From a virus, in IMG/VR virus record IMGVR_UViG_3300044770_000059, positions 19,323 through 83,322 of that record: a stretch of 64,000 nucleotides of DNA, one strand, 5' to 3'. The notes beneath the pieces are model-generated. The model saw only the letters and a program-made list of their open reading frames with translations. It was not told where the DNA came from and did not search any database. A program made the translations under genes and the position numbers. This document shows positions 2,018 to 38,123 of the stretch, in pieces. How positions within the stretch are numbered: the first letter of the stretch is position 1; each line of letters opens with the position of its first letter.

Positions 2018-2812
2018 TTACCAATTTGGCACCAGCCCGGCGAAGCTCTGTCTCTCATACTTCATCGCCAAACGATAGAAACTCTTCGCTTGCCACGCCT
2101 TTATCTTCTCGGATGGACGACCTCGGAACATGTACTCGAAGTGATATGCCCTCACCCGGGGGTTGTAGATGCATTGCTCTTGCGAAAGAAAGACTCGAAG
2201 ACAATAGTCCACATCTTCCCAACCCATGAAGAACTCTTCGTCGTAAATTCCGACCTTTTCCAGGGTCGAGTGGCGAATGAACTGAAAAGCACCCGTTACC
2301 GGACAGGCATTCATTCTCAACGCCTCTGGCAGATCCCCCGGCCCGTACTTGTACAGGTGGTCAAAAGTCCTGGTTAAGGCAGAAAAGTAGACCCCGGCAT
2401 GCTGGATCGTCCCGTTTGGGTAGTAGAGCAACGCCCCAACGACGGCCGCCGGCTTCATGTCCTGATCCTTGGTCCGGATGAACTCGCCGAGCCAGCCTGG
2501 CGTCGAGATCTCAACGTCAGCGTTCATCAGAACCGCGTGGCGTCCTTCGTCCAACGCTCTCTGCAATCCAATATTTATAGTTTTAGAAAATCCCGTGTTC
2601 TCTTCCTTGCGGTGGACCTCGAAGGCGAACTCCGGGCTGGCCTGCTCCAGTCTGTCGGCCAGATCCTGGTCGGGCGAGAAGTCATCGACGCAAAGGATGT
2701 CCACCTTCTCGCCCTGGGTATGGCGAACGCTTCTGATCGCGTCAAGCGTGGTCACCAGGTCCTCCTCCTTCGACATGAAGGTCGGGATCACGACGAGGGC
2801 TTTCGGCTTCAC
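2018..2812 (-). CDS. GT2-family glycosyltransferase
   Basis: LVVIPTF...ILCVDDFSPD...NTGFSKTINIG...LMNAD...GAFQFIR...FFMGWEDVDYCLR; GTG start overlaps the upstream stop. Confidence 0.9.
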   Translation of the reverse strand: MKPKALVVIPTFMSKEEDLVTTLDAIRSVRHTQGEKVDILCVDDFSPDQDLADRLEQASPEFAFEVHRKEENTGFSKTINIGLQRALDEGRHAVLMNADVEISTPGWLGEFIRTKDQDMKPAAVVGALLYYPNGTIQHAGVYFSALTRTFDHLYKYGPGDLPEALRMNACPVTGAFQFIRHSTLEKVGIYDEEFFMGWEDVDYCLRVFLSQEQCIYNPRVRAYHFEYMFRGRPSEKIKAWQAKSFYRLAMKYERQSFAGLVPNW

Positions 2813-4506
2813 AGGAACAGGTCCTCCGATACTCGGAGCATCTTGCCCGGGAGATCCTTGATCAGGCCGTTGATCCGCAGTGTCGAGAGCGCGTTGGCGA
2901 AGGTGCTGGAGGTTTGGGAGTAGCCGGTGTGATCGCTCAGGAGATCCCGCGTGTAGTCCCGGGGGTAGCCCTCGATCAGGGTCTCCAGGATCGTCCGGGG
3001 CGCGAGGGGGAGCGAGTCCAACCACTGCATCCGGACCTCCTCCGGCGTCTTCGGGCTCGCCGGCATCTCCCCGACATGCTCGAAGCTGGCGTCGTTGCAG
3101 GCGAACAGCTTCGAGTCGTCGTCCATCAGCCCGTTCGTCCGCAGCTCACTCAGCGCGTTGGCGAAGGTGCTGCTCCTCGGTTTGTACCCGGAGAGGGTTG
3201 AGACCTGAGCGCGCGTCAACGCCATCGGGTGACGTTCGACCAACGTCTGGAGGATCTTCCGCGACGCCCTGCCCAGTCTGATGTCCCCATCCACGCCCGC
3301 CACGGATGGCTCCAGCCTGCGGGGCTGAGGAGTTTTGGCCGCTACTTTGACCGGCCTCATGTCCGTCTGTCTGGGCATTGGCCGGATCTCCAGCATGTCG
3401 AAGTTTGACTTCGCCAACTCGATCAGGCTCCCCGAAGTCTCCAGCACCTTGCCGGCCTGGTCCCCAACCTTCTCCAGGAGCTTCACGACCTGCTCCTTCA
3501 ACTCGTCGGGGAAGACGGGGACCTCGACCTCGACCCTAACCTCCTTGGGCTCTACCCCAGGACGCTCTCGAAGCTCCTTCTCCAATCCGGCGATCCGGCT
3601 GCGCAGTTCTCTGGGGTCCTCGGCCTTGGCCCGCTCGATCGTGTCGGCGATCGCTGCCTCTATCTCACCCAGGTCCACATCGGCCAGACGTGCGACATCA
3701 CGATCCTCCCAGTCCGGCGTCGCACCCGAGTCGAAAGTCCGCCTCCTCCTGAACCGCATCCGCTCCATCATTCTCAGCTTGTGGGGAGACCAGAGCCAGG
3801 CTTCGCCATCGTCCAAACGGGGGAGCGAATCGAACATCTCCTGCCCGATGTCGTGCTCGACCACCCATTCCTTCAGCGCTCTCTTGTCCCGTGGATCGCC
3901 GACCCGCATCGGGATCAGAGTGTCGATCTGACTCAGCGCGTCCTTGCTGAGGGAGGCGGAGCGCTGGGTGACCAGCGTCACGAAGATCCCACGGAACCGC
4001 CCGCGCTTGACGAGCTTGGCCCAGGCACCTACACACTGCGCCTCCCTTCTCATCACCCGCTGAGGCAGGTACTCGTCTGCCTCCTCGGCGATGACCTGAA
4101 GCGGCGATCGGTTCTTTCGTAGGAGCGTTTCGGCGAAGTCGGTGAGGAAGCGGAGCTGCTGCCCCTTGGTCATCTCGCTGATGTCGAGGACACAGGTCAG
4201 ACGCTTGTCGGCGACCAACTCGGCCATCATCTTGCCGGCCGTTTGCTCCAGCGGGACATCGCCATGAAGACCGCCGAAGATCGGAACGTTGAGGCCCGGC
4301 CCCTTACCGCTCGCCGAGGACCGCACCCCCCACCAATCCCCCTTCGGATCGACGGCAACCCAGGGAATATCGGCGTCGTACATCTCCTCCGCCATGACGA
4401 CAGCAGCATTCGACTTGCCAGCACCGCTCATGGCAAGAATGCCGAAACGCTGAAGCATCGCCTCCGGTGGCAGCTCCACTCCTGGGGCCAGCTTCAGACC
4501 CGACAT
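2809..4506 (-). CDS. HerA/FtsK-family (DUF87-like) ATPase with two C-terminal winged-helix repeats
   Basis: Walker A GILAMSGAGKSN, VAVDPKGDW, Walker B IAEEADEY, LVTQRSA; duplicated SSTFANALSxLRxNGL helix. Confidence 0.8.
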   Translation of the reverse strand: MSGLKLAPGVELPPEAMLQRFGILAMSGAGKSNAAVVMAEEMYDADIPWVAVDPKGDWWGVRSSASGKGPGLNVPIFGGLHGDVPLEQTAGKMMAELVADKRLTCVLDISEMTKGQQLRFLTDFAETLLRKNRSPLQVIAEEADEYLPQRVMRREAQCVGAWAKLVKRGRFRGIFVTLVTQRSASLSKDALSQIDTLIPMRVGDPRDKRALKEWVVEHDIGQEMFDSLPRLDDGEAWLWSPHKLRMMERMRFRRRRTFDSGATPDWEDRDVARLADVDLGEIEAAIADTIERAKAEDPRELRSRIAGLEKELRERPGVEPKEVRVEVEVPVFPDELKEQVVKLLEKVGDQAGKVLETSGSLIELAKSNFDMLEIRPMPRQTDMRPVKVAAKTPQPRRLEPSVAGVDGDIRLGRASRKILQTLVERHPMALTRAQVSTLSGYKPRSSTFANALSELRTNGLMDDDSKLFACNDASFEHVGEMPASPKTPEEVRMQWLDSLPLAPRTILETLIEGYPRDYTRDLLSDHTGYSQTSSTFANALSTLRINGLIKDLPGKMLRVSEDLFL

Positions 4507-5724: not shown

Positions 5725-6433
5725 AATGAAGAGACATATCCTCCTTCTGCTTCGGCTTCTCGCTGACCACATGACTGCGGAAGTTGCGATCGGGGCACAC
5801 GGCAATACCGATCTCGCCGCCCTCCGGTGCGTACATCCGGTAGGCCATCCTCATGGCCCGATCCCAGTTTGTGGCCTCGATCAGGATTGGCTTGGGCTCC
5901 GGGGCTTCCTCACCCTCTGCGACCTCGGACACCGGCTCCATCTGCTGGTGCATGACCGAAGGCGTGCTCTTGTCGAAGAGGAGCACGCAGTAGGCGCGAG
6001 TGTCGTTGCCCTGGCTTTTTCTCACTTTTGTTTTTCTCGCTTTCGCTCTCGACTGTTTGGCTGGTCTGGGCTTCGGCGCGGGGGCTGGTGCCGGCTTGGG
6101 CTCCGGCTTGGGCTCCGGCTTGGGCTCCGGTTCCGGTTCCGGGTCTGGTTCCGGATCTGGGGCTGGGGCTGGTGGCTCCGGCTGTGGTGGCGCGGGAGTC
6201 GGCTCAGGGGTGGGTTCCGGGGTGGGTTCCGGGGTGGGGGCTTCCTCCGCCAGAATGTCCCCGGGGTCGTCCTTGGGTAGGTCGTCCTCCGGGTCGTAGC
6301 CACCAAGGCGACCCTCCTCAGCATCGCTGAGGTCGATCACGTTCTCGGTATCGGCGGGCTCGAAAGCCTCATCGCGCTCGAACTCGCTTTCCGCCGGTAC
6401 ATCCTCAAAGACATCGCCTGGGCTGTCGTCCAT
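5717..6433 (-). CDS. Acidic, Pro/Glu-rich hypothetical protein
   Basis: D/E-rich N-terminus, PEPT/PEPK tandem repeats, short folded C-terminal domain. Confidence 0.6.
   Translation of the reverse strand: MDDSPGDVFEDVPAESEFERDEAFEPADTENVIDLSDAEEGRLGGYDPEDDLPKDDPGDILAEEAPTPEPTPEPTPEPTPAPPQPEPPAPAPDPEPDPEPEPEPKPEPKPEPKPAPAPAPKPRPAKQSRAKARKTKVRKSQGNDTRAYCVLLFDKSTPSVMHQQMEPVSEVAEGEEAPEPKPILIEATNWDRAMRMAYRMYAPEGGEIGIAVCPDRNFRSHVVSEKPKQKEDMSLHFG
6075..6240 (-). repeat. Coding tandem repeats (6-12 bp units) encoding PEPT/PEPK
   Basis: ggcttgggctcc x3 and ggggtgggttcc x2-3, in frame within 5717..6433. Confidence 0.8.
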
Positions 6434-19891: not shown

Positions 19892-20331
19892 GGACTCACA
19901 CCCGACGTGGCTAGGGGGCCTGAGATGATGCGGATGACTTCCATCTCTATCTCATATGTCCAGTAGTGGTTGGGAGCGTTGGTTGGATCTTTCGGGTTGC
20001 GGAGCACACGTTTGCGCGTCGGCTCAAAGCTCGTGAAGATGACCTCATACTCGTCACCGGCGAAGTCGCGGAAATAAATAGTCTGGCTCTTACTGAGCTG
20101 CCACCATCTCCAGATCTCGATCAACATTGCTTCGGTCAGGATCGAGCCTCGCACCTTCCAGATCAACGGTTCATCGTCACCTTGCTGCTTGACGAGCCCG
20201 GTCTGGCCGGTGTTCGCACCATGCGTAATGTTGCGGCGCTTGCCGAACCCCTCCTCCTCACTGTAATTGAGTGGCCAGTCATATGAGGCTGCTGTTCTAG
20301 GGTCTGTGAATCGGTTCGCTATCCGTGTCAT
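19888..20331 (-). CDS. Distal tail (Dit-like) protein
   Basis: Directly after the tape measure; IYFRDFAGDEYEVIFTSF...WTYEIEMEV. Confidence 0.55.
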   Translation of the reverse strand: MTRIANRFTDPRTAASYDWPLNYSEEEGFGKRRNITHGANTGQTGLVKQQGDDEPLIWKVRGSILTEAMLIEIWRWWQLSKSQTIYFRDFAGDEYEVIFTSFEPTRKRVLRNPKDPTNAPNHYWTYEIEMEVIRIISGPLATSGVSP

Positions 20332-23300
20332 GCGGCCACCATCCCTGCTGAGCGCCGCGCCGATCTGTTACGGCCACCGACTGCTTTGAGCACAGCACCG
20401 GCTACCGCCTGTGGGTTCGCCCCGTAGATGTACATGTTCACGTTGTTCTGCGAGTAGGCGACCGGGTTGCCGCCGCCGCCTCCAGCGATCGCACGCTTGA
20501 TGTCGTAGATCGTCGGCAGGTTGATGTCGCCGACAGCCAAATCGAAGTCACCTTCCTGGTCGGCTTCGTTCTTCAACTGGTAGATCTTGCGGCGAAGATC
20601 TCGGCGAGTGTCGAGGCTGAGTCTCTGCGTCTTCAACAGCCGCTGGTAGGCCGAGATCTCCTGATCGGTCGTCAGTTTGCCGATGTCGGCCTCGAACTGA
20701 ATGCTCTCGATCCGTCTTTGCGCGATGGTGTCTCGGAGATCGCCACGCCGTCGGATAACGTCGGCTCGTCCAGTGCGCCGCTCGGCTACCGTGTCGGCTT
20801 TGCGCAGTTCAAGCTGGGCCTGGCGCAACTCAGCGCGAGCCACGCCCACGTCGTTACCTCGGAACTCAGCCCGAGCCGCAACCACATCGAGCGTTGCCTG
20901 CTTGGCCTCGATCGCCTGGTCTCGAACATCCTCCGCGAGCTGCTGCTGCGCGTCAACGATCTGGGCCTGGAGGTCGGTGATCTGGGTGGGCTCGAAGCGG
21001 TTGGCGTGAGCCTGCATGTAGGCGAGGAGGGCTTGGTCGCGCTGGACCTCCGCCCGCGCCTGGCCAACCTCATCACTCGGGCCATAACGCCGTGCGATGC
21101 CCAGGTTCAGTCTGGACTCCAGCCGGCTGTACTGCGCGGCCGCGAGTTCGCCGAATGCCTGCTGGCGCTCGGTCAGGAGGTTGAGGACCTCTTCGCTGTT
21201 GTGACCGTAGATCTCGATCGCGCGCGCGAGAAGACGGTTGACACCCTGAATCGCGAGTCTGGCCTGTGCCGCCGGATCTGCCGTCCGAGCGGAGCGGAAG
21301 TCCTGTTGCGCGTTGGTCAATGAGGAGATCTCCTCAAACTGCTGCTCATCTAGTTTTTGGAGAGCGAGTCTGAGTCTTCTGAGGTTCTCGACCTTTTCTT
21401 TCGTAAGCTGACCCAACACACCCCGGCTTGACTGGATCTTCTCCATCAACCCACCAATAGCATCCCGCGCTCTGCCGGTGGTGTAGTGCGCCCCAACGTT
21501 GCCGAGGAGCTTGCCAACGTCGATGTCAACACCACCGATCTCGATCGAGCCAACGCCCTCCGTGACCCCATGAATTCTTCTCTCGATGTCGCCAATCCCC
21601 TCGCGGGACTGTCTGAGAACCTCGCGAAGCTGGCGAACACGCGCCCGCTGATCCTGAATCTCTTTGTTGACCTGCTTCGTGTACGCCTGTCGATATTGCC
21701 CTCGCGCCTGCCGATAGAACCGTGCGCGCTGTGAGGGGGAGCGGGAGAGAGCCAGATTCTGTTCCAGCTCGTCGCTGATGAGACTTTCGATCCCATCGAA
21801 GTATTGGTCGCGTGCCTCCTGAAGGGCTTTGATGTCCTCTTTGGAGCCGCCTTGCCCGAAGCGCACACGTGCGGCCGAGTAGGCGATTGCCGCCCTGGCG
21901 ATGTCTTTGCCGTTGATCCCAAGCGAAAGAGAGGAGAGCTGGGACTCGATCAACCCTGTGACCTGGGTTGGATCACGAACCTGGAGCAGGCTGCGGAAGA
22001 GATCTCTGTCAGGGGCGCTAGCCAGTCGGGCATCGCGGATCTGCTGCTTAATTTTCTCGACCGCGCGACGCTGCTTATCTCCGGTTCCTTTACCGAGGAA
22101 TTTTGCTTCAGCGGAGAGGACCAACTGCTCATCCAGGCGAGCCAACTGTTTTTGCAGCTCTGCCCGAGTTCTTGACTTGTCCTCGGCCCTCTCTACACCA
22201 CCTTGAATGTCAGCGGCATAGCGATACGGAATCGCCCGTCCTTCGCGTCGGGCATCTTCCTGCGCACGTCGCATGCCCCGGAGTTTCCCCGCTGTGATCG
22301 CGGCTTCTTCCCGACGCGCGTCGCCAGTGCCCTGCTCAGAACCAAGCCCAAACAAACTCTCCAATGGTCCGTGGAACTTCCCCGACCCAGTTATGAAATC
22401 GGTGAACCCCTCGGTGAAGCTATCCCCGCCGGTGGCTTCTGCGTCAAGCTGGCGCAGCTTCTCAGCTACCTGCTTCTGGCTTGAGAGGCCAGCGTGGATT
22501 CTCTCGCTACGCTTGCCAATTTCTTCGGCCATCCCCTGGAGAACATCAAGGGCAGTGAAGAAGGCAAATGCACCGAAGGCGATCGTCCCCAGGCGGCCAA
22601 CCAACGAAGACGCGGCACCGCCGAGAGAAGAACCAACACTGCGCATCCTTCCGGTGATATTTCTGAAGCGCCCAGTGAAACGATTCGTCGCCACCCGGGC
22701 TCGAAGAGTTTGCTTCTCAGCCCCGCTGAGGTCGATCGCTGAGGCTGGGATACCCGGGGCCGGGATAGCACTGCCGTAGCGTGTCGCGCCCGGGAGCGTC
22801 TGCTGGGCGGGCACCCCCGGTGGGACCGTGGTGGGGCGCTCCCAGGTGAGGGGCGTCGCCATCCCCGTTCGTTCTAGATAACGATTCGCGGCTGCCACAT
22901 CGGTTCGACCGAAGCGCCCGCGAATCGCCTTTTGGGCGGCTGCATTTGCTTTGAGCTGATCCCGCGATGCCTCGGTATCAAGAGAAGCAAGCTCTGCACG
23001 CTGGCGTTGGACAAGGAGGGAATCGCCCGAAGCCTTCATTTGGTCGCGGGTGACTGCTGCCTCCGCTGTCGCGCCTGCCTTTTCCTGCTGGATGGCTCTT
23101 GCCTCCAGGGCAGCCATCCGATTGGCAGCCAGGTCAGACGAATAGGAAGCACCTGCCGCCTCCGACGTTGACCGCATGAATCTCTCTTCAAGGAACAGGC
23201 GTTGGCGTTCCAACCCGCCCTTGACGGAAGCGGCCGAGGCCCGGCCTCCCTGCGGCTGGAGGAACCCGGCCACGGCACCGCGTGTGGCACCGGGCTGACC

Positions 23301-24878
23301 AGTTGGACCGCCGGCAACAAACTCGCCGAACTGCAAGCGCCGCATCAGAGCAAGCACAAGTCGAAGCTGAACCGCGTAGGAGAGTGTCCGTCGGACAGGC
23401 TCGGAAAGACCGTTGAACACTTCCAACAGATTGTTAGTCAGGCTGAGCATCCCCTTCAAGAGGCCCGCGCCAGCCTTCAGTGAATCTAGAAATCCACCTT
23501 GCTCAAGATTGGAGCCCATGATGCCGAGCTGGGTGACGATGGATTTGATCTGCTCCGCCGTCGCGCTGAGGATCGAGTTCAGCTCCTTCTGGGCGGAACC
23601 GCGAGATGCCTCGGGGCTGGTTTTGGCCAGCACTTTTTTGTAGAGGTCATACTGCTGAAGAATCGGAGTGAACACACGAGGGCCGTACTGTTTGCCGGCG
23701 AGAGCAGAACCGAGCTGCTGGACCTTCTCTCCCGACAGGCCCTGGGCAACCTCGAATGCCTTGTTGATGATGTCTCTGAGCGGTGCGGTTGGATCAATCC
23801 CCAGCGACTCCAAGAAGGCTTTGTTGTCCGGCTGGCGGAGCTGACCCGGGATTCGCTGGATCGCTGTGCCGATGACGTTGCCACTCTGGCCGGTGGCTTT
23901 GGAACCCGTGGTGATAAGTGCCAGAATCGTGTCGAAGTCGGCCCCGGCCGCGCGAGCGATGCCGGCCGCACGAGCGATGCCGGCGAAGGTGCCTGGTATG
24001 TCAGCGCCAAATCTGTTCTGGGCCTGGTTGATCTGGTCGAAGACCGTCGCCATCTCATCTGCGGGGATCTTGAAGCCCTGGATGATCGAGATCAGGTAGC
24101 GGGACGATGTGGCAACGTCCAACTGGCCGGTCCTGACGGAGTAAAGGACAGCGCGCGTGGCCAACATTGCGTCGTCCTGGTTATGGAAAACTTTCCCCAT
24201 CTCGGTGCCGGCCTCCGACACGTCAGAAATCGGCACGTTGAAGTCTTCTGCGAGCTGGCGGAAGCTGGCCTTGGCTTTATCGGTGTCGAGGTCGTTGACC
24301 GTCCGCTGCATCTGGCTGACGCCACGGTCAGCCTCAATCGCGCCCTGGCCGACGGCATAGAGAGAGCCGATCGCTCCATAGACTGCCGCGCCGGCACCGA
24401 TCCACCCACCGAACTTTCCAATCGTGTCGCGGACCTGGAGACCCAACTCCCGAATCGTTACCCGACCACGAGCCGCCTCGTTGATGAACTCCGTCGTGAG
24501 AGCGCCATAGCGACGCAGGGCATTGGAGGCGAGAGCCTCCTGCTGAACCAGATACTGGGTCTGGCTACTGAGCCCCCGGGTGGCACCCTCAGCTTTGGAG
24601 AGGCGTTGCGTGTAGCGGGGGTCATCCGGCCCGCCTCCACCCGCGCCATAGCCTCCACCGCCGACCGGAGGACGTGTAGGAGGCAGCTCACCGCCGCCAC
24701 CGACCCCGCCGGTCGGACCAAGGAGGGGTGTCCGCCTGACCCGACGGGAGGCTCTCTCCAGCCGACGGTCCAGCTCGCCCGCGTTGGCAATCGAATTCCT
24801 CAGCCGTGGGCCAAGACGATTCAGCTCTTTGTTTAGAGCATCGAGATCGCCGTAGAGCCTGTCGCCGCCGTCAGCCAA
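20328..24878 (-). CDS. Tape measure protein
   Basis: 1516 aa, helical A/Q/R-rich; TP901-type N-terminal core (ATGQSGNVIGTAIQ); follows the chaperone. Confidence 0.92.
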   Translation of the reverse strand: MADGGDRLYGDLDALNKELNRLGPRLRNSIANAGELDRRLERASRRVRRTPLLGPTGGVGGGGELPPTRPPVGGGGYGAGGGGPDDPRYTQRLSKAEGATRGLSSQTQYLVQQEALASNALRRYGALTTEFINEAARGRVTIRELGLQVRDTIGKFGGWIGAGAAVYGAIGSLYAVGQGAIEADRGVSQMQRTVNDLDTDKAKASFRQLAEDFNVPISDVSEAGTEMGKVFHNQDDAMLATRAVLYSVRTGQLDVATSSRYLISIIQGFKIPADEMATVFDQINQAQNRFGADIPGTFAGIARAAGIARAAGADFDTILALITTGSKATGQSGNVIGTAIQRIPGQLRQPDNKAFLESLGIDPTAPLRDIINKAFEVAQGLSGEKVQQLGSALAGKQYGPRVFTPILQQYDLYKKVLAKTSPEASRGSAQKELNSILSATAEQIKSIVTQLGIMGSNLEQGGFLDSLKAGAGLLKGMLSLTNNLLEVFNGLSEPVRRTLSYAVQLRLVLALMRRLQFGEFVAGGPTGQPGATRGAVAGFLQPQGGRASAASVKGGLERQRLFLEERFMRSTSEAAGASYSSDLAANRMAALEARAIQQEKAGATAEAAVTRDQMKASGDSLLVQRQRAELASLDTEASRDQLKANAAAQKAIRGRFGRTDVAAANRYLERTGMATPLTWERPTTVPPGVPAQQTLPGATRYGSAIPAPGIPASAIDLSGAEKQTLRARVATNRFTGRFRNITGRMRSVGSSLGGAASSLVGRLGTIAFGAFAFFTALDVLQGMAEEIGKRSERIHAGLSSQKQVAEKLRQLDAEATGGDSFTEGFTDFITGSGKFHGPLESLFGLGSEQGTGDARREEAAITAGKLRGMRRAQEDARREGRAIPYRYAADIQGGVERAEDKSRTRAELQKQLARLDEQLVLSAEAKFLGKGTGDKQRRAVEKIKQQIRDARLASAPDRDLFRSLLQVRDPTQVTGLIESQLSSLSLGINGKDIARAAIAYSAARVRFGQGGSKEDIKALQEARDQYFDGIESLISDELEQNLALSRSPSQRARFYRQARGQYRQAYTKQVNKEIQDQRARVRQLREVLRQSREGIGDIERRIHGVTEGVGSIEIGGVDIDVGKLLGNVGAHYTTGRARDAIGGLMEKIQSSRGVLGQLTKEKVENLRRLRLALQKLDEQQFEEISSLTNAQQDFRSARTADPAAQARLAIQGVNRLLARAIEIYGHNSEEVLNLLTERQQAFGELAAAQYSRLESRLNLGIARRYGPSDEVGQARAEVQRDQALLAYMQAHANRFEPTQITDLQAQIVDAQQQLAEDVRDQAIEAKQATLDVVAARAEFRGNDVGVARAELRQAQLELRKADTVAERRTGRADVIRRRGDLRDTIAQRRIESIQFEADIGKLTTDQEISAYQRLLKTQRLSLDTRRDLRRKIYQLKNEADQEGDFDLAVGDINLPTIYDIKRAIAGGGGGNPVAYSQNNVNMYIYGANPQAVAGAVLKAVGGRNRSARRSAGMVAA

Positions 24879-27850: not shown

Positions 27851-28618
27851 CTACAGCCCCCGGAAGCCGGCCCCGGAGCCGACCACACGCCTTGCAGCCC
27901 TGATGCGGGAGTGCGTTCCCTCGCGAATTGCACGGATCTCAGAGGCGAGTCGTACATCAAGGCGGTCGAGGCGCTGTTTGCGTTTGATGCCAGCGACGAC
28001 AGTGCCGGTGCGCAGGTAACCGCGAGGCGTGACCTCGTTTCTCACGAGGAGCCGCAGTCCCTCGCCGGTACGAAATATTGGGTGGACCCGGAACTCTGCG
28101 ATGTTGGGTGCGGCGTCGCCAGGCTGGAAAGCTCCATAGACATTGAGGCGATGAGTCATCTCGACCAAGTGAGTCGAACCCAGCTCCTGGACGCGCCACC
28201 CGGGGTGTTTGGAGAGAGTCTCGATCTCGCCGATGCCGACCTCCGCCAGCGGCGGGAACTGCTGGATGGCGCGCGCGGTGATGAGATCCTCCAAGTGGAT
28301 ACCGCCCCTCCCCGGACCCTGCGGGCGCTTGCGCGTTGCCTCCAGGGTCCGCTTGGCGGCTGTCTCGGCCGCCTCCGCCGCCAGAACTCCGATCTGCTCC
28401 ATCGAGCGGGCTAAGTCCCGGGTTATCGTGTCGAGCGCCAGGGTGTGAGCTTTGCCCAGCAGGCTGCGGTTCGCGGAGGCCAAATCCCGAAGAGCAGCCA
28501 GCTTCGTGTAGGCATCGACCGCTCCGTGCGGCCGGCCAAGGACGGCGAAGAAGCGGGAGCCACCGCGCTCGATCCCCTCGGCGTTCCAGTAGCGCTCGGG
28601 CAGACCCAACTCAGCCAT
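27851..28618 (-). CDS. Neck/tail-completion region protein
   Basis: Position; TACACT -10 box 6 nt before the ATG (leaderless-type). Confidence 0.5.
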   Translation of the reverse strand: MAELGLPERYWNAEGIERGGSRFFAVLGRPHGAVDAYTKLAALRDLASANRSLLGKAHTLALDTITRDLARSMEQIGVLAAEAAETAAKRTLEATRKRPQGPGRGGIHLEDLITARAIQQFPPLAEVGIGEIETLSKHPGWRVQELGSTHLVEMTHRLNVYGAFQPGDAAPNIAEFRVHPIFRTGEGLRLLVRNEVTPRGYLRTGTVVAGIKRKQRLDRLDVRLASEIRAIREGTHSRIRAARRVVGSGAGFRGL

Positions 28619-28641
28619 GCCCAGAGTGTAGGGTGCCCGCC

Positions 28642-28744
28642 GGGGGCGTAGCTCAGACGCCTGTGGACGAGGCTTTTGGTTCTCGCGTCACGAAAGAGTG
28701 GAGGGTCGCGCCCTCCGTCGCCGGTCGGCAGCCGGCCGCCCCCT
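28642..28744 (+). ncRNA. tRNA-Lys-derived structured RNA (remodelled paralog of 37613-37685)
   Basis: First 16 nt identical; colinear to CTTTT; acceptor GGGGGCG/CGCCCCC, T-stem GCCGG/CCGGC, extra hairpin GGAGGG/CCCTCC. Confidence 0.6.
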
Positions 28745-28932
28745 ACAAAGCCGAAGACCCCGGGAGGGGGTGCCTTTCGCGCGGCCGCGCTCCAGGTCCA
28801 TTCCTACCAGGGTCGTTCGGGCAAAGGCTCCCTTGCGCTGCCCGATGCACCGACGGTCCAGCTACATCGGGAGTGGTTGATCGGGAAAACCGTTCCCGCC
28901 CAGCGCTACACGTCGCCTTGTCGGAGAGGCTA

Positions 28933-29430
28933 TCAGGAAAAGCGATCGAAGTAGATGTCGCACACTTTGAGGGTGACCAGCCAGATGTGCTCCTGCCAGG
29001 GTGCCGGTCTTGGGATTGGCTGGCGCTCCGCCGACACGTATTCCACAACCAAGGTGTCCATCCGAGGGCGGTCTCTCTCCCGGATGTCGAGCAACGGGAT
29101 CAGATCGCCCTCGGACTCCAGGCTGAATTTGATCGCCTGTGCCAGGGCCTTGCCCCAGGTGGCGTCCTTCCCGAGAACGAAGAACTCGATCGTGTAGAGC
29201 CGCTCCTTCAGGCTTGAACCCAGCTCTGCCTGTCTGCCGCCGTCATCGAAGTCGTAGCCGGTGGCCACGTAGTTCATGTCGAGCGGGGTCGGTTTCCCTT
29301 CAAAGTTGGCCGGGTCGAAGGACTCCACGATCTCGATCTGGGATCTCGGGTAGCCGTGAACGTTGAAGAGCTGCTGGCGCAGGAACGCCTGCACGCTCTC
29401 CGTTACAAAGTCTTCCCTAGTCAGAGCCAT
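28933..29430 (-). CDS. Tail terminator/completion protein
   Basis: Position and size; YTIEFFVLG...LVTLKV pattern. Confidence 0.55.
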   Translation of the reverse strand: MALTREDFVTESVQAFLRQQLFNVHGYPRSQIEIVESFDPANFEGKPTPLDMNYVATGYDFDDGGRQAELGSSLKERLYTIEFFVLGKDATWGKALAQAIKFSLESEGDLIPLLDIRERDRPRMDTLVVEYVSAERQPIPRPAPWQEHIWLVTLKVCDIYFDRFS

Positions 29431-37612: not shown

Positions 37613-37685
37613 GGGGGCGTAGCTCAGATGGCAGAGCACCGGGCTTTTAACCTGGAGGACGCTGGTTCGACGCCGGCCGCCCCTA
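37613..37685 (+). tRNA. tRNA-Lys (anticodon UUU), no encoded CCA
   Basis: Full cloverleaf: GGGGGCG/CGCCCCT, D-stem GCTC/GAGC with G18G19, CCGGG-CTTTTAA-CCTGG, GCTGG-TTCGACG-CCGGC. Confidence 0.93.
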
Positions 37686-38123
37686 TCCGGTGATGACCGT
37701 GTAGACCCGACTCATCGCTTCGTGGTCCTTGTCGAGGCGTTCGAGCTGGTCCCGAATACGAGCGATCAGGTGCCGGGCGCTGTCGATCGAGGAGCAGATC
37801 TCCGGCGCAGCTCGTCGTCTGGCGGCCGCGACCTGCGCCTGCGTCGGTCTCTTGGACTCCAGGTAGTTCTCCCAGGGGGTCTCACGGGCCTGCTCGATCA
37901 GTCTGTACAGCGACTCCTCCAAGACCAGGCGTTGATGCTCCAGCTCGCCGCGCGCTTCGGCGACCTCGACCATGTAGTCCTCGATGTGGGTGACTTTCTC
38001 CTGGCTCGTGAGAGGAAGTAGCTCGCCCGAAATTTCATTCTGCCTACCCCGCCGCAGAGCCGCCGGCACTCGAACCTCCCGGGCGATCCGGTGGATCGCG
38101 CCCTGAATCTCAATCAGCTCCAA
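37683..38123 (-). CDS. Helical hypothetical protein
   Basis: Follows TerL; its stop codon overlaps the tRNA 3' end. Confidence 0.6.
   Translation of the reverse strand: MELIEIQGAIHRIAREVRVPAALRRGRQNEISGELLPLTSQEKVTHIEDYMVEVAEARGELEHQRLVLEESLYRLIEQARETPWENYLESKRPTQAQVAAARRRAAPEICSSIDSARHLIARIRDQLERLDKDHEAMSRVYTVITG

Follow-up and report, generated by a model that had tools for sequence, protein, structure and literature searches.

A non-decoding, tRNA-like element derived from tRNA-Lys, with a rebuilt structure kept in two related phages

Phage T4 makes two stable, tRNA-shaped RNAs that do not decode, species 1 and species 2 (rnaC and rnaD), which are matured within the T4 tRNA cluster and for which we know of no function. 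The element described here is unrelated to them in sequence and context, and it stands alone and antisense to structural genes.

Phage tRNAs are now tied to both escape from tRNA-cutting defences and tRNA-dependent lysogeny. They were reported to counter tRNA-cutting defences (PMC10264068, PMC11555353), and in the tRNA-dependent lysogeny of actinobacteriophages a phage tRNA replaces the host tRNA-Lys that is destroyed by integration (PMC10865867). The variant tRNAs that evade defences resemble the present element in belonging to a phage tRNA-Lys lineage with an altered anticodon-loop region, but they are functional tRNAs whose loops or stems are changed only subtly, whereas the element cannot decode and its loop is not conserved. 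YrlA is a tRNA-mimicking non-coding RNA, known from phages too, whose processing involves RNase P and the CCA-adding enzyme (PMC4201824). Both YrlA and our element are non-coding RNAs of about 100 nt that imitate part of a tRNA (PMC4201824); however, YrlA keeps canonical D and T arms together with a Ro-binding stem, whereas in the element both loops are rewritten and a long terminal stem is missing. Identity with a Y RNA was rejected, as there was no Rfam match and the 86-kb genome contains neither a Ro (TROVE) nor an RtcB gene.

The window, that is, the whole stretch of 64,000 nt analysed here, comprises bases 19323-83322 of an uncultivated virus record of 86.2 kb (~98% complete, G+C ~62%) from soil or sediment. 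The phage was considered temperate because a tyrosine integrase is encoded outside the window (G000:10797-11279), and every relative examined encodes a tyrosine integrase as well. Exactly one recognisable tRNA was found in the genome, the tRNA-Lys(UUU) at 37613-37685 (ARAGORN; Rfam 61 bits), whose last three bases are the complement of the stop codon of a minus-strand ORF (37683-38123). By analogy, its antisense position, the stop-codon overlap and the tyrosine integrase match the pattern of tRNA-dependent lysogeny (PMC10865867). A further ARAGORN call, 'tRNA-???' at 6063-6158 with a 4-base anticodon, was a false positive in a coding GGCTCC/GGTTCC repeat.

The structural genes flanking the element, among them the tape measure protein gene (20328-24878), are located on the minus strand, and PHROG and Pfam gave almost no annotation for the neighbouring genes. 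The element is located inside a 313-nt non-coding gap between a head-completion gene and the gene that opens the tail module (Table 1), and its tRNA-sense strand is opposite to both. We found no prophage relatives in 185k species genomes, and no relative of this phage among cultured phages. The same strain was detected in eight other metagenome runs with 0-2 differences per piece; every run that contains this DNA is registered as DNA, none as RNA. A contig of a second metagenome study (X6) has the element without any change, whereas three of the four runs examined gave no contig over it, so that no informative strain variation was obtained.

Table 1. Position of the tRNA-like element, its parts and the features around it (window coordinates, except for the L016 element)
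Feature	Coordinates	Strand	Basis or remark
tRNA-Lys-derived, non-decoding tRNA-like RNA gene, 104 nt	28642..28745	+	segmentation; covariance models R2, R3
Acceptor stem, 5' strand	28642..28648	+	pairs with 28737-28743; 7 Watson-Crick pairs; 3 pairs changed on both sides in L016
Unpaired UAGCUCAGACGCC, former tRNA positions 8-20, without D-stem partner	28649..28661	+	identical in L016 save one C/U
Anticodon-like arm: 5-bp stem CGAGG/UCUCG, 8-nt loop CUUUUGGU	28668..28685	+	segmentation, comparison with L016
Extra variable-region hairpin, 6 bp, 5-nt loop	28700..28716	+	terminator-like pattern on minus strand
T-like arm: 5-bp stem, loop UCGGCAG, without TTC	28720..28736	+	loop AUGGCAG in L016
Acceptor stem, 3' strand, then U73	28737..28743	+	segmentation, comparison with L016
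Candidate -10 hexamer TAGGGT, 7 nt before G1 of the element	28629..28634	+	read by eye; inferred promoter
TACACT, leaderless-type -10, 6 nt before ATG (28618) of the 255-aa gene	28625..28630	-	TANNNT kept in relatives
255-aa gene, first of the tail module	27851-28618	-	bounds the gap; ATG at 28618
165-aa head-completion gene	28933-29430	-	bounds the gap
Conserved small-RNA gene, ~94-100 nt, convergent with the tRNA-like element	28820..28918	-	conservation, compensatory pairs
TGATAGCCT preceding the small-RNA gene	28927-28935	-	sequence
Working paralogue tRNA-Lys(UUU), antisense to structural genes	37613..37685	+	ARAGORN; Rfam 61 bits
Rebuilt tRNA-like element of L016	L016:3068-3161	-	segment comparison, covariance models

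The element has common descent with the canonical phage tRNA-Lys(UUU) (RF00005). BLAST and side-by-side reading against the working tRNA-Lys at 37613 showed that the first 16 bases at the 5' end are identical (16/16), that CTTTT is held at positions 32-36 in both, and that the 3' acceptor strand is identical as well. A covariance model made from the element (R2) matched the same tRNA with 43 bits (E 5e-8), far beyond chance. All pairs of the acceptor stem (7/7) and of the T stem (5/5, with the 7-nt loop TCGGCAG) are Watson-Crick, and the two stems have the lengths of a tRNA. The anticodon-like stem of five pairs carries a C:G to G:C swap at 28:42.

Compared with canonical tRNA-Lys, the rest of the molecule is rewritten. 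The D stem is reduced to two of four pairs with AGACGCCU as D loop, G19 and A37 are replaced by C and G, respectively, and the T loop has lost its TTC; an elbow composed of a D stem with G18G19 and a T loop with T54-Psi55-C56 is therefore missing. The anticodon loop is 8 nt and departs from the canonical 7-nt loop with U33 and a purine at 37, residue 73 is U, and the variable region comprises 34 nt instead of 5, its ~30 extra bases including the inserted hairpin. An earlier sequence-only reading of this DNA had claimed the likeness to the tRNA at 37613 with its 16 identical bases and CTTTT in register, the perfect acceptor and T stems, the anticodon stem CGAGG/TCTCG with its swapped pair and 8-nt loop, and the loss of the D stem, G19, TTC and A37 beside a new 6-bp hairpin, and our segmentation and comparison bore out all of these. 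That reading also expected the tRNA finders and Rfam to make no call, and this was indeed the case: ARAGORN reported nothing for the element at default settings or with the intron option, and Rfam gave no match in the 451 nt searched, even at E<=10. When the ARAGORN thresholds were lowered to 70-80%, a 'tRNA-Ala with intron' and a call with a 4-base anticodon appeared, which were rejected because obvious false calls came alongside.

To place the element among related phages, homologues of the 165-aa and 255-aa proteins (~77 clusters) were used to find related loci, of which about 25, from IMG/VR and other metagenomes, were compared. The gap between these two genes is a variable slot: it holds only a GC-rich hairpin in L003, L006 and L011 and other inserts in L004 and L012, and it is absent from L005. 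The element was lacking in the closer relatives L003, L004, L005, L006, L011, L013 and L014 (60-81% amino acid identity in neighbouring genes), so its distribution is patchy. In two more distant relatives the slot contains a true tRNA-Lys(UUU) antisense to the structural genes, at c[3538-3610] in L020 (79 bits) and at c[3211-3284] in L036. The L020 copy is the sole tRNA of a 71-kb record and lies 127 nt from the downstream gene, which is homologous to the 255-aa gene (E 9e-22). In L036, 23 nt separate the 5' end of the tRNA from the complement of the start codon (ATG) of the 255-aa homologue, and the window element has the identical spacing; it agrees with this real tRNA-Lys in slot, strand, the 7-bp acceptor stem and the 5-bp T stem too. 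The element thus occupies the place of a tRNA-Lys gene in sister phages. In L003 a sense tRNA-Met was seen at 2219-2293 (+), between the 146/148-aa gene and the portal gene, which is roughly the site of the antisense tRNA-Lys in the window; both the identity and the orientation of tRNAs are therefore subject to turnover in this group of phages.

A second rebuilt element was found in L016, which comes from a complete phage of 78.6 kb with terminal repeats and is a distant relative. The only tRNA of its genome is a tRNA-Leu located elsewhere; as it has no tRNA-Lys, the L016 element is not a fresh duplicate. The parts follow one another in the same order in the window and in L016: acceptor stem, UAGCUCAGAYGCC, a 5-bp arm, a purine-rich spacer (GAAAGAG in the window, GAGAAGAG in L016), the extra hairpin, GUC, a T stem with an NNGGCAG loop, and U73. 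A single base differs within UAGCUCAGAYGCC, and the D stem is missing in both, whereas other parts differ in sequence. In the anticodon-like arm of L016, a 5-bp stem that differs in sequence closes the 7-nt loop CCUAGAU (probability 0.75), and its extra hairpin, at the same place, has 5 bp and a GGAA loop and is unrelated in sequence to the window hairpin. Set against three real tRNA-Lys genes, the two elements have four derived characters in common, namely the change of G19 to C, the GGCAG T loop, the inserted hairpin and U73. The GGCAG is a shared derived feature because the loops read UCGGCAG and AUGGCAG in the elements but TTCGA in the three real genes, and residue 73 is A in all three of the latter.

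The helices of the two elements are kept while their sequences change. Among the 17 pairs shared in three stems, 8 are identical, 7 differ at both partners and 2 at one partner only, and no pair is broken. In an Infernal alignment of the two elements 100% of the cells were paired with 8 double changes, as against 40-57% and 0-2 double changes for slid partners, these counts coming from two rows only and from an alignment fitted to the structure. The reciprocal searches agreed: among the single-sequence covariance models, R2 matched the L016 element (33 bits, E 1.5e-5), and the best non-self match of the L016 model R3 in 195 kb was the window element (36.5 bits, E 3e-8), with true tRNAs at 24, 20 and 20 bits. 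All four helices of the L016 element are thermodynamically favoured (probabilities ~0.5-1.0); its folding energy was no better than that of shuffles, and neither ARAGORN nor Rfam made a call for it. Viral, metagenome and genome collections were also scanned with exact and degenerate patterns of the element, of its ends and anticodon arm, and of the phage tRNA-Lys, without a useful match. Three matches to the anticodon-arm pattern were not tRNAs, a single match in a Fimbriiglobus MAG was rejected for want of an acceptor stem and with a count at chance expectation, and no progenitor tRNA carrying the anticodon stem of the element was found.

Taken together, the element descends from tRNA-Lys, is equivalent in position to real tRNA-Lys genes, and has a rebuilt secondary structure that is kept in two phages. 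We consider it somewhat more probable than the opposite that it is the gene for a small non-decoding tRNA mimic, made from a phage tRNA-Lys(UUU) and under selection.

The most serious competitor of a selected RNA is a decaying pseudogene, in which the tRNA-Lys of the slot became redundant once the copy at 37613 was established, and few hits together with easy GC-rich pairing left the stems intact. A real tRNA-Lys does stand in the slot of relatives, tRNA content turns over in the group, and tRNA pseudogenes are routinely reported in phages; in addition, the loop changes are clustered and possibly go back to few multi-base events, and a thermodynamic signal is absent. The G:U pairs are also compatible with it. 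Three G:U pairs of the tRNA-Lys (1:72, 29:41, 51:63) are Watson-Crick in the element, which confirms the differences noticed in the sequence-only reading, but the direction that was read into them, a repair of the helices, did not stand: two sequences leave these differences unpolarised, and the element has a new G:U pair (G31:U39). The stems themselves speak for constraint. None of the 6 stem differences from the paralogue breaks a pair (p ~0.001-0.007), and in simulations placing 6 random substitutions in 34 stem bases all 17 pairs were kept in only 0.06-0.7%. More important, L016 shares the derived features and has all helices kept through 7-8 double changes, in a genome without any tRNA-Lys. 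We ranked the selected RNA above the pseudogene because a neutral relic would not keep the design through so many compensated changes, and the earlier claim that the helices are under constraint and are not simply decaying was strengthened by the L016 element and the reciprocal model matches. A pseudogene is accordingly judged unlikely, although it deserves more weight than any of the alternatives below.

It had been proposed earlier that the element acts as a decoy, presenting the anticodon loop of tRNA-Lys to anticodon nucleases (PrrC/RloC-type, with PARIS added here) or to LysRS. CUUUU is held in register, tRNA-Lys(UUU) is the only tRNA these phages carry, and tRNA-cutting defences, which phage tRNAs can counter, are known to attack tRNA-Lys (PMC10264068, PMC11555353). 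However, the 8-nt loop has G37 for A37, A73 is replaced by U73, and the loop of the L016 homologue is CCUAGAU, which puts a Lys-type loop outside the conserved design. The stem that would present the loop has an ensemble probability of only ~3% on the plus strand, where it is disfavoured because CUUUU prefers pairing with the 5' region. The decoy has thus lost most of its appeal and we regard it as quite improbable; a use of CUUUU as a decoy that is specific to the window copy or its lineage is possible.

The folding of the element does not by itself choose a strand. All stems are Watson-Crick save one pair and can fold on either strand; the acceptor stem has a pair probability of ~1.0 on both, and the complement of the anticodon-like stem reaches 0.53 on the minus strand. 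The folding energy of the 104-nt element was no better than that of shuffles on either strand (z ~ -1.5), and for the whole gap z was ~0. The function might therefore be sought on the other strand or in the DNA, as a terminator or insulator of several hairpins that separates the head unit from the tail unit, or as a structure of read-through late mRNA. The inserted hairpin together with ACTCTTTCGT fits the pattern of a minus-strand terminator, and a GC-rich hairpin occupies this place in relatives that lack the element. Nevertheless, this was the single match to the pattern, with 0.6 expected from shuffles, and the G:U pairs of both members (G31:U39 in the window, G3:U70 in L016) fit the tRNA-sense strand only and would turn into A-C mismatches if read from the other one. 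The L016 element is found on the far side of the small-RNA gene, ~115 nt away from the tail-gene promoter, so that the two members do not hold the same position with respect to the operon boundary, and the 13 conserved unpaired bases UAGCUCAGAYGCC would be left unexplained. A role of the other strand or of the DNA is improbable in our view.

The TANNNT before the ATG of the 255-aa gene is found in 10 of 11 relatives at 6-7 nt (once 9 nt), a spacing which suggests, as far as sequence can tell, that the mRNA is leaderless and that the head and tail modules belong to separate transcription units. With a promoter of this leaderless type the element would fall outside the 255-aa mRNA. Together with the G:U pairs, this weakens another proposal of the sequence-only reading, that a minus-strand late mRNA presents AAAAG in a loop. 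On the plus strand, the candidate TAGGGT was not reported by the consensus promoter scan. Hexamers reading TAGTAT are present on the antisense strand of two relatives, in L016 at 7 nt upstream of the small RNA and in L036 at 10 nt upstream of the real tRNA-Lys. The hexamer region of the window is partly palindromic (GATAGTATC) and could hence fire in both directions.

Since the phage encodes a tyrosine integrase, we also considered a recombination site, either an attP or the relic of an integration into a host tRNA-Lys gene. Phages of this kind often integrate into tRNA genes (PMC10865867), and the integrase is found in the phage and in all relatives examined. But the integrase gene is ~37 kb distant from the element, the identity to the tRNA is found at both ends instead of in a single 3' core, and the covarying helices point to an RNA. 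Such a site is very improbable.

The tRNA-like element has a small-RNA gene as its neighbour in the gap. This second gene, which reads GGGCGAUGGUGUAGC...GCAACCUAGCCC, was found in the slot of 13 of the loci examined, including the window, L003:9786-9897, L016:3166-3260(-) and L036:3047-3141(-). Compensatory changes were found in 8 of its 19 predicted pairs among 12 sequences, and a TANNNT hexamer is always located 6-9 nt upstream; no Rfam match was obtained for it. Its orientation relative to the flanking genes can be either, depending on the relative. In L016 the small-RNA gene is followed 4 nt further on by the tRNA-like element on the same strand.

For the selected mimic we propose the following course. 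The plus strand would be transcribed from TAGGGT, with G1 as the first base; as for the antisense tRNA-Lys, this would probably take place in the lysogen. The RNA may take an L-like fold, in which the acceptor stem and T arm stack and GCC of the D region pairs with GGC of the T loop in place of the canonical elbow. These two trinucleotides are complementary in both elements, with 3 pairs in the window and 4 in L016, and judged from this complementarity the earlier wording of a destroyed elbow may be too strong. An RNA of this shape could be handled by enzymes or factors that read the acceptor/T-arm half of tRNAs, and it might titrate, or be sensed by, a tRNA-binding partner; it would not act through a lysine anticodon.

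We might speculate further that the two elements represent an undescribed class of phage tRNA mimics, with a rewired elbow (GCC-GGC for G18G19-Psi55C56) and an extra arm. Such a prophage-strand RNA would be made with the neighbouring small RNA and would belong to the same circuit as the lysogenic tRNA-Lys, blocking a tRNA-directed host defence or tuning tRNA-dependent lysogeny. This full proposal is a long way from certain, and we put it forward as a tentative and rather unlikely extension of the selected mimic.

The case illustrates how a working tRNA gene can be converted into a different structured RNA. One slot, always antisense to the structural genes, provides a comparison set composed of a true tRNA-Lys (L020, L036), a rebuilt RNA (window, L016), a T-arm element (L013, L014) and a small RNA (13 loci), and the elements of the slot are constructs with which the roles of tRNA mimics in temperate phages can be tested.

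The T-arm element is a different tRNA-like element of ~115 nt, which occupies the slot in L013:3500-3613(-) and L014:824-938(-), again on the antisense strand. It comprises a 15-bp terminal stem, a hairpin with a GNRA tetraloop (GCGA/GUGA) and a T-arm-like GGGUUCRACUCCC. ARAGORN and Rfam made no call for it and the models of the window element did not match it. Homology to the window element was rejected, as model R1, built from the two copies, had no match in the window at E<=10, and the MAFFT similarity between the two kinds of element was not significant. The L013 and L014 copies differ by two compensatory changes and have several G:U pairs. In L012 a GC-rich hairpin unit of 18 nt, CTCGGGGGCCGCCGCCCC, is tandemly duplicated at ~330-365, just before the tail-gene promoter.
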